UHGV virus genome: UHGV-0286550
From: a virus
Direction: 5' to 3' (one strand)
DNA: 21,407 bases
Shown here: positions 10,945 through 10,978 of the stretch, piece after piece
Position numbering within the stretch: the first letter of the stretch is position 1
Layout: the number at the start of each line of letters is the position of its first letter
Translations under genes and position numbers: made by a program
Notes under the pieces: generated by a model
What the model saw: the letters and a program-made list of their open reading frames with translations, nothing else
Told to the model about the DNA's origin: nothing
Databases searched by the model: none

Positions 10945-10978
10945 CTGCCGGGGGTGCTGAACACCCCCAGCAGTACCC
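10945..10978. promoter_or_regulatory. Candidate late-promoter activator site (lysis operon): dyad CTGCCGGGGGTG-CTGAA-CACCCCCAGCAG containing conserved element GGTGCTGAACACCC...CAGTACCC
   Basis: Seen in sequence. The 26-bp element (10953-10978) recurs at 18957-18982 upstream of gene I with 23/26 identity, and a CCGT motif follows at the same distance (~31 bp from the dyad centre) in both copies. No sigma70 -35/-10 pair is evident, consistent with activator dependence. Confidence 0.6.

Follow-up and report, generated by a model that had tools for sequence, protein, structure and literature searches.

A conserved dyad repeated upstream of the lysis operon and gene I is the probable activator box of late promoters in a Mu-like E. 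coli prophage

In the virus genome UHGV-0286550 nearly the same 26 bp stand upstream of both the lysis operon and gene I, and the initial annotation took this element for a candidate activator site of late promoters. The locus raises the questions of which bases make up the site, whether promoters follow it and which protein would bind it. In the window, by which we mean the whole 21,407-nucleotide stretch analysed, positions 726–21407 belong to a Mu-like transposable E. coli prophage, of which they make up the left two-thirds. A prophage in strain RIVM_C036569 (locus L001) is 99.6–99.9% identical to it (99.9% over window 7006–21407), and a count over 5426 complete E. coli genomes found the region in about 58. 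No close relative was found among the sequenced phages of the phage collection; resemblance to phiP27-like and P88-like phages was confined to the lysis genes. The genes run in the order repressor, ner-like gene, A, B, early genes, gemA (9536–10048) and a Mor-family gene (10144–10611), followed by a 95-aa ORF, two holins, endolysin, terminase, portal, F, G (18251–18802), I and T. Window 1–725 matches neither the L001 prophage nor its flank and is presumably host flank from a different insertion site; an Rfam match to the JUMPstart RNA lies inside it (29–67, minus strand, 58.5 bits, E = 2e-11). At window 7006–7085 the RIVM_C036569 prophage is ~550 bp longer and includes an extra 181-aa ORF. The genes that border the element are:

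10639–10926, + strand: 95-aa ORF that separates the activator gene from Plys; matches PHROG 7152 (unknown function) at E = 1.8e-56
11114–11506, + strand: holin, first gene of the lysis operon; Pfam Phage_holin_8, E = 3.2e-25; annotated in RefSeq; Shine-Dalgarno sequence AGGAGA
19012–20127, + strand: gene I (Mu-like protease/scaffold); Pfam Mu-like_Pro, E = 9e-98; the RefSeq start is this ATG

The repeated element and the dyad within it

The lys copy, GGTGCTGAACACCCCCAGCAGTACCC at 10953–10978, and the I copy, GGTGCTGAACACCCTCCACAGTACCC at 18957–18982, are identical at 23 of 26 positions, as the initial annotation had it, and one further shared G extends the repeat to 24/27 (repeat family D15). 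The 15-mer GGGTGCTGAACACCC is exact in both (10952–10966 and 18956–18970) and occurs exactly twice on the + strand. An exact 15-mer repeat by itself is not rare (0.23 expected); pairs agreeing at ≥24/27 positions are expected 0.0012 times in a 21.4-kb sequence of the window's composition. At up to three mismatches GGGTGCTGAACACCC has 4 matches against 0.57 expected, each site also matching on the minus strand. Both copies are intergenic and lie on the coding strand, the first between the 95-aa ORF (end 10926) and the holin (ATG 11114) and the second between G (end 18802) and I (RefSeq ATG at 19012). The same G–I interval holds, ~60 bp upstream of the PI box, an A/T-tract motif, CGTTTTTAAAAGGGTTTTAAAAACGG (18895–18925), variants of which are found in all relatives at the place of the Mu strong gyrase site between G and I; similar repeats occur at 911–956, ~190–230 bp from the left prophage end (repeat families D7 and I18). 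A search for further copies downstream, which the initial annotation had proposed, was positive. A third copy, AAGTGCTGAACACCCTC, is located at L001 40806–40822, beyond the window end, between the baseplate-V gene and a gp46-family gene, and the E2348/69 prophage carries an identical copy of this site.

The inverted repeat initially assigned to the element, GGGTG-CTGAA-CACCC, is not what relatives preserve. Its left arm reads AAGTG, CCTG, ACCG or ATGTG in relatives, and in its CACCC arm the base after AAC varies among A, C and T. The dyad conserved throughout the clade lies 4.5 bp downstream and reads GCTGA-N6-TCA(A/G)C; the inverted repeat GCTGA-N6-TCAGC is perfect in four relatives (L007, L010, L012 and L164), while the right half-sites of the window prophage are degenerate (CCAGC, TCCAC and TCACC). 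The corresponding features are:

10956–10971, + strand: predicted Plys activator box, a 16-bp imperfect dyad, GCTGA-ACACCC-CCAGC, which aligns ungapped with 24 other sites
18960–18975, + strand: predicted PI activator box, GCTGA-ACACCC-TCCAC, the best weight-matrix match (32 bits)
Outside the window: predicted P(gp46) activator box, GCTGA-ACACCC-TCACC
10972–10977 (lys) and 18976–18981 (I), + strand: AGTACC, the probable promoter-proximal outer part of an extended dyad, at about −35 to −30

That the activator reads the G/C arms instead, with sites centred on 10959 and 18963, is improbable. These arms are perfect in both window copies (extending to 12 nt in the lys copy), and G-run and C-run flanks are also seen in L024 and at the Salmonella PI, although centred about one base away. 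However, AAGTG replaces the GGGTG arm in the third copy of this prophage, both arms are absent from more distant relatives, in which the base after AAC is A, C or T, and their centre would fall at −48 instead of −43.5 relative to the starts predicted below. In L164, whose activator is 92% identical to that of the window, the arms become AGGTG...CTCCC while GCTGA-N6-TCAGC becomes perfect. The lys site of L164, GGTACTGCTGA-ACTCCC-CCAGCAGTACC, has 10-bp arms, which suggests that AGTACC of both window copies forms the outer part of an extended site of ~26 bp.

The lys copy is also surrounded by a palindrome that is longer than the 7-bp arms first described:

10945–10973, no strand assigned: long palindrome around the lys copy with 12-nt arms and one mismatch; −21 kcal/mol, z −3.9; lineage-specific

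This fold, together with a terminator-like flag on the minus strand, could suggest that transcripts arriving from upstream are terminated, processed or attenuated at a hairpin, of RNA or DNA, formed by the element. Yet the palindrome is kept neither in L024 nor in the I copy, the fold of which is not significant (z −1.3), and the left arm is missing from the third copy. On the + strand the element does not lead into a T-run, genes on the minus strand are absent, Rfam gave no match at the element, and at neither window copy does a G+C-rich hairpin run into a U-run on the transcribed strand, as it would in an intrinsic terminator. With only the lys copy folding significantly, and without a U-run, the hairpin role fails, and we regard it as highly improbable.

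Conservation of the box and geometry of the predicted promoters

Mor-family homologues were collected and aligned, and their loci were taken from species-representative genomes, E. coli genomes and IMG/VR, together with assemblies encoding activators 65% and 83% identical to that of the window. The box recurs before the lysis genes, gene I and gp46 in about 30 related Mu-like prophages. The motif was present before the lysis genes wherever these were readable, before gene I in all phages for which gene I was mapped and before the gp46 homologue in every phage whose gp46 region was captured. An ungapped alignment of 25 sites from 13 phages, anchored on the left half-site and spanning activators 36–100% identical to that of the window, gave the conserved columns TGCTGAACcCccTCAnC with unconserved spacers and flanks, and ~20 more IMG/VR phages agree with this pattern. 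A 14-mer scan of IMG/VR returned mostly chance matches; a correctly offset −10 was present only in Mu-like contigs. A weight matrix derived without any phage of the window lineage found, in the ~42-kb prophage, exactly three sites, all intergenic and on the + strand, which scored 32.0 (I), 30.0 (gp46) and 8.6 bits (lys) against a next best match of −4.1 and a shuffle maximum of 2.9. Our literature search found nothing on the motif or on late promoters of these Mu-like prophages.

In identical columns of all 25 aligned sites there is a hexamer of the form xAxxxT, starting 39 nt after the G of GCTGA (TACACT, TATGCT, TACGCT, CATCAT, TACCCT and others). The hexamers of the window, both of which carry A2 and T6, are:

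10995–11000, + strand: predicted −10 of Plys, TACCCT; offset 39; predicted start ~11005–11009; leader of ~107 nt to the holin ATG
18999–19004, + strand: predicted −10 of PI, CATCAT, a hexamer shared with L007, L010, L012 and L058; offset 39; predicted start 19010–19012

From the 39-nt offset and a predicted start 7 nt past the hexamer, the dyad would extend from −51 to −36, centred on −43.5. The AGTACC sequence in the −35 region matches TTGACA at only two of six positions and is thus not a −35 element, and a consensus scan found no sigma-70-type promoter at either window site. Mu itself follows the same spacing: Pmom in the Mu sequence reads ATTAT-GCCCCA-ATAAC, 23 nt and TAAGAT, an offset of 39.

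Two other readings of these sequences were discarded. A CCGT motif does follow both dyads, as first reported (10990–10993 and 18995–18998), but its register differs by one base between the copies and it merely abuts the −10 hexamers, so that it was rejected as a conserved, independent element and counted among the bases before the hexamer. An ECF-sigma-like promoter (GAAC ... CGT) would require a spacing of 16–17 nt, whereas 28 nt are found, and the phage encodes no sigma factor.

A mosaic boundary falls at the lys box. Rightwards of 10947 the S13 and E2348/69-type E. coli prophages are 96–98% identical to the window at the nucleotide level, while to the left the homologue of the 95-aa ORF in these prophages is only ~45% identical at the amino-acid level. 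This jump at exactly 10947 would suit a mere recombination scar or linker between modules with no regulatory role. Such a scar would not hold a fixed 39-nt spacing to the −10 across divergent spacers, nor would it recur before three operons and covary with the activator, and we consider this the remotest of the alternatives. The use of promoter boxes as recombination points is probably a consequence rather than a rival explanation. Holins differ among relatives sharing the box, and homology to the phiP27 lysis genes begins only at 11043, downstream of Plys; both point to a box that moves with the regulatory module and not with the lysis genes.

The Mor/C-family activator and the left half-site

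The candidate for box binding is encoded just upstream of the 95-aa ORF, and the features of its gene are:

10055–10080, + strand: intrinsic terminator closing the early operon after gemA, a 9-pair stem then TTTTTT
10087–10114, + strand: sigma-70-like promoter of the activator gene, TGTACA-16-TATAAT, 10/12 match
10144–10611, + strand: Mor/C-family late activator, candidate box binder; Pfam Mor (PF08765), 28.3 bits against a cut-off of 24.9
10582–10606, + strand: probable terminator, a hairpin and T-run over the last activator codons, AGCCCCAC-CCAG-GTGGGGCT-TTTT

The product is the only Mor-family protein encoded in the window. It matches PHROG 836 ('late transcriptional activator', E = 1.2e-42), and hhalign relates it to Mu C and Mor with 97% probability (E = 1.2e-10), the alignment with the family covering the GG..YIP linker and the helix-turn-helix. 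Foldseek found no significant PDB match for an AlphaFold monomer model (pLDDT 81.5), probably owing to the intertwined oligomers that Mor/C proteins form, and phmmer against the PDB gave a weak match to Mu C (E = 0.43); family membership thus rests on profile methods. The C terminus, ...PTQVGLFD (10591–10608), contains Q150, L153 and F154, which are nearly invariant in the family, and its QVGLF resembles QPDLF, the C-terminal motif of Mu C for binding the beta sliding clamp. Such a motif is needed for Mu C function (PMC12867686). An N-terminal clamp-binding motif of the QL[SD]LF type was not found in the activator. The hairpin at 10582–10606, read from the sequence and unlisted by the terminator scan, is kept in relatives.

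Five relatives (L006, L008, L011, L013 and L181) encode two family members, a Mor-like protein after gemA and a C-like protein ~600 bp further, and other relatives have a single activator directly after gemA. The window activator is the orthologue of the C-like gene, with 44–55% identity compared to 35–38% to the Mor-like proteins. At ~9880–9960 in each of the five two-activator phages, a middle-promoter-like sequence, ACTGA-ACCCCT-TCAAC, precedes the C-like gene with the 39-nt spacing. In L009 a GCTGA-type box stands before the phage's own activator gene.

The left half-site follows the helix-turn-helix class of the activator. Counting unique site sequences, called with a pattern that already required NNTGA or NNCGA in the left half, GCTGA was present in 54/54 sites of phages with a C-type helix-turn-helix (first helix S.RQAMA) and ACTGA in 14 of the 15 sites of the Mor type (S.LMA.), while a recognition helix in which Q replaces W (Serratia, L194) went with GACGA in all six. 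The ACTGA sites comprise promoters of the C-like gene in two-activator phages and late promoters of phages with a single Mor-type activator (L187–L191). The right half-site shows no covariation with the activator. Given the few lineages and a pattern that constrains left-half positions 3–5, this covariation is support rather than proof; it ties the box to the 10144–10611 product, which, as first suggested, is the likely binder. The phage's own Mor/C-family activator would most likely be the protein that occupies the boxes.

Binding by the 95-aa ORF product or by a host protein is very unlikely in comparison. In the window lineage and in Salmonella the ORF is indeed the immediate upstream neighbour of Plys, but box-bearing relatives from Xenorhabdus, Photorhabdus, Morganella, Serratia and others lack it; its absence from most relatives with a box indicates that it is not the binder. 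A host factor would leave three box variants within the Enterobacterales unexplained, and neither protein accounts for a left half-site that follows the Mor/C helix-turn-helix class.

Besides the degenerate right half-sites, which do not covary with the activator, the main explanation has against it the near-consensus sigma-70 promoter of the activator gene, which leaves the silencing of late genes in the lysogen unaccounted for. This promoter is conserved in L024, L025, L026 and the Salmonella locus L020, with a conserved GATC in its spacer 13 nt upstream of the −10, and Salmonella relatives keep the order of terminator, promoter and activator gene. A comparison of the promoter (CTGTACA..CGATCA) with the early control region for a shared operator gave no match above chance.

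Proposed late promoters, gene starts and known systems

Taken together, the conserved box, its fixed spacing to the −10 and the Mu geometry are best explained if the element is the activator-binding box of the late promoters Plys and PI, as was originally proposed for the lysis operon and gene I, with a third promoter before the gp46-like baseplate gene; we place the probability of this reading at roughly 0.8. In the course of events that we propose, where box binding, activator dependence and start sites are all read from sequence, the single Mor/C-family activator (10144–10611) would be made from its own promoter after induction. A dimer or tetramer would then bind GCTGA-N6-YCNNC plus flanks, ~26 bp centred at −43.5. 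The bound activator would replace the absent −35 contact and bring sigma-70 RNA polymerase to the weak −10s (TACCCT at 10995 and CATCAT at 18999). The lysis-operon transcript would begin near 11007 with a leader of ~107 nt. The gene I transcript would begin at the ATG at 19012 or within 2 nt of it, and would thus be a leaderless mRNA.

The last prediction stems from the position of the start codons. The gene I ATG follows the hexamer by 6–7 nt in the window and likewise in all Enterobacterales relatives whose gene I was mapped (CATCAT-gccgcgc-ATG, TATGCT-gtggac-ATG and TACGCT-ggcctc-ATG, for example), and the gp46 ATG lies at an equal distance in the window lineage, L063 and L090 (e.g. CAGACT-ggcggc-ATG); in the gp46 sites of L032 and L035 the hexamer is one base earlier (offset 38). 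The start of gene I is supported by homologues that align from residue 1 and, in L006, by an in-frame stop 8 codons upstream. Gene I and gp46 lack a Shine-Dalgarno sequence, and their start codon is ATG in all relatives. When the pairing of 46 prophage genes with the anti-Shine-Dalgarno sequence was ranked, I was the weakest and gp46 the third weakest. From an ATG 6–7 nt past the −10 and no Shine-Dalgarno sequence, leaderless mRNAs are predicted for gene I and gp46, with PI and P(gp46) transcripts that start at the AUG or within 2 nt of it, so that the start could be 1–2 nt upstream. Leaderless translation is rare in E. coli.

At gp46 the −10 hexamer and the ATG are contained in a palindrome with 10-bp arms, CCATGCTGCC-AGACT-GGCGGCATGG (L001 40810–40870), which as RNA folds with −24.9 kcal/mol (z −5.3) and which divergent relatives keep with different inner bases. 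This palindrome would hide the AUG in read-through RNA, such that only promoter-initiated RNA would be translated. A wider reading joins these points: PI and P(gp46) would start at the A of the start codon and yield leaderless I and baseplate/tail-fibre mRNAs, the gp46 palindrome would mask the read-through AUG, and the Mor-to-C tiers of relatives would be told apart by essentially one base (ACTGA versus GCTGA). We hold this combination tentatively, at slightly less than even odds.

The analysis yields a consensus for the late promoters and a likely recognition site for a subfamily of Mor/C-family activators whose hosts include E. coli (among them EPEC E2348/69), Salmonella, Xenorhabdus, Photorhabdus, Morganella, Serratia and others. 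Its natural specificity variants, GCTGA, ACTGA and GACGA as against TTAT in Mu, offer test material for recent Mor/C–DNA cryo-EM models. The late operons and the start codons of gene I and gp46 can be annotated better, and leaderless late mRNAs in E. coli phages are a testable prediction.

The closest known counterparts are the C-dependent late promoters of Mu (Plys, PI, PP and Pmom), which share the 16-bp imperfect dyad with a C-rich 6-bp spacer. In Mu, C recognizes an imperfect dyad of 16 bp, its centre at −43.5; the Mu late promoters have a −10 and no −35, and their −52 to −34 region is required (PMC2582627). The promoters described here have the same activator family, −10, absent −35 and centre, the last measured from a predicted start. 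In a cryo-EM preprint the C tetramer extends over nearly three helical turns, matching the 26-bp footprint (bioRxiv 10.1101/2025.05.02.651988), and the ~26 bp conserved between the window copies match this footprint and tetramer length. Plys and PI of Mu also occupy the same gene positions, before the lysis genes and gene I.

The differences lie in the sequence recognized and in the regulatory tiers. The Mu C consensus is TTAT-N5-6-ATAA (PMC12867686); the half-sites here are GCTGA/TCAGC, and neither window box contains the Mu C box proper, which bears out the initial remark that the sequence departs from that of Mu. The activator is a remote relative of Mu C with two insertions. Compared with PP of Mu, the third promoter is displaced downstream by two genes, to a position before the gp46-like gene, and a mom promoter is lacking. 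While gene I of Mu has a leader of ~35 nt, and that of Lonepinella also has a leader, the gene I and gp46 ATGs lie at the predicted start. The middle promoter Pm of Mu is built alike: a Mor/C-family protein binds its dyad, the centre of which is at −43.5. The window phage has neither a Mor gene nor a Mor-dependent middle promoter, so that the Pm tier is absent, and its activator gene is served by a promoter of sigma-70-like type. The Mor and C sites of Mu are unrelated in sequence, whereas the middle and late boxes of two-activator relatives differ mainly at the first base.

The late promoters of P2 and 186 (Ogr/B) offer a second parallel: a small phage activator binds a dyad that lies upstream of −35-less promoters before head, tail and lysis operons, one of them at the baseplate V/W junction. 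They differ in that Ogr is a zinc-finger protein of an unrelated family that binds near −55 and acts via the alpha subunit. With its dyad, spacing and −10 without a −35 as in Mu, the architecture of the present promoters is that of a Mu late promoter with a different recognized sequence; the known concept of Mu late regulation is unchanged, and what differs is the box.
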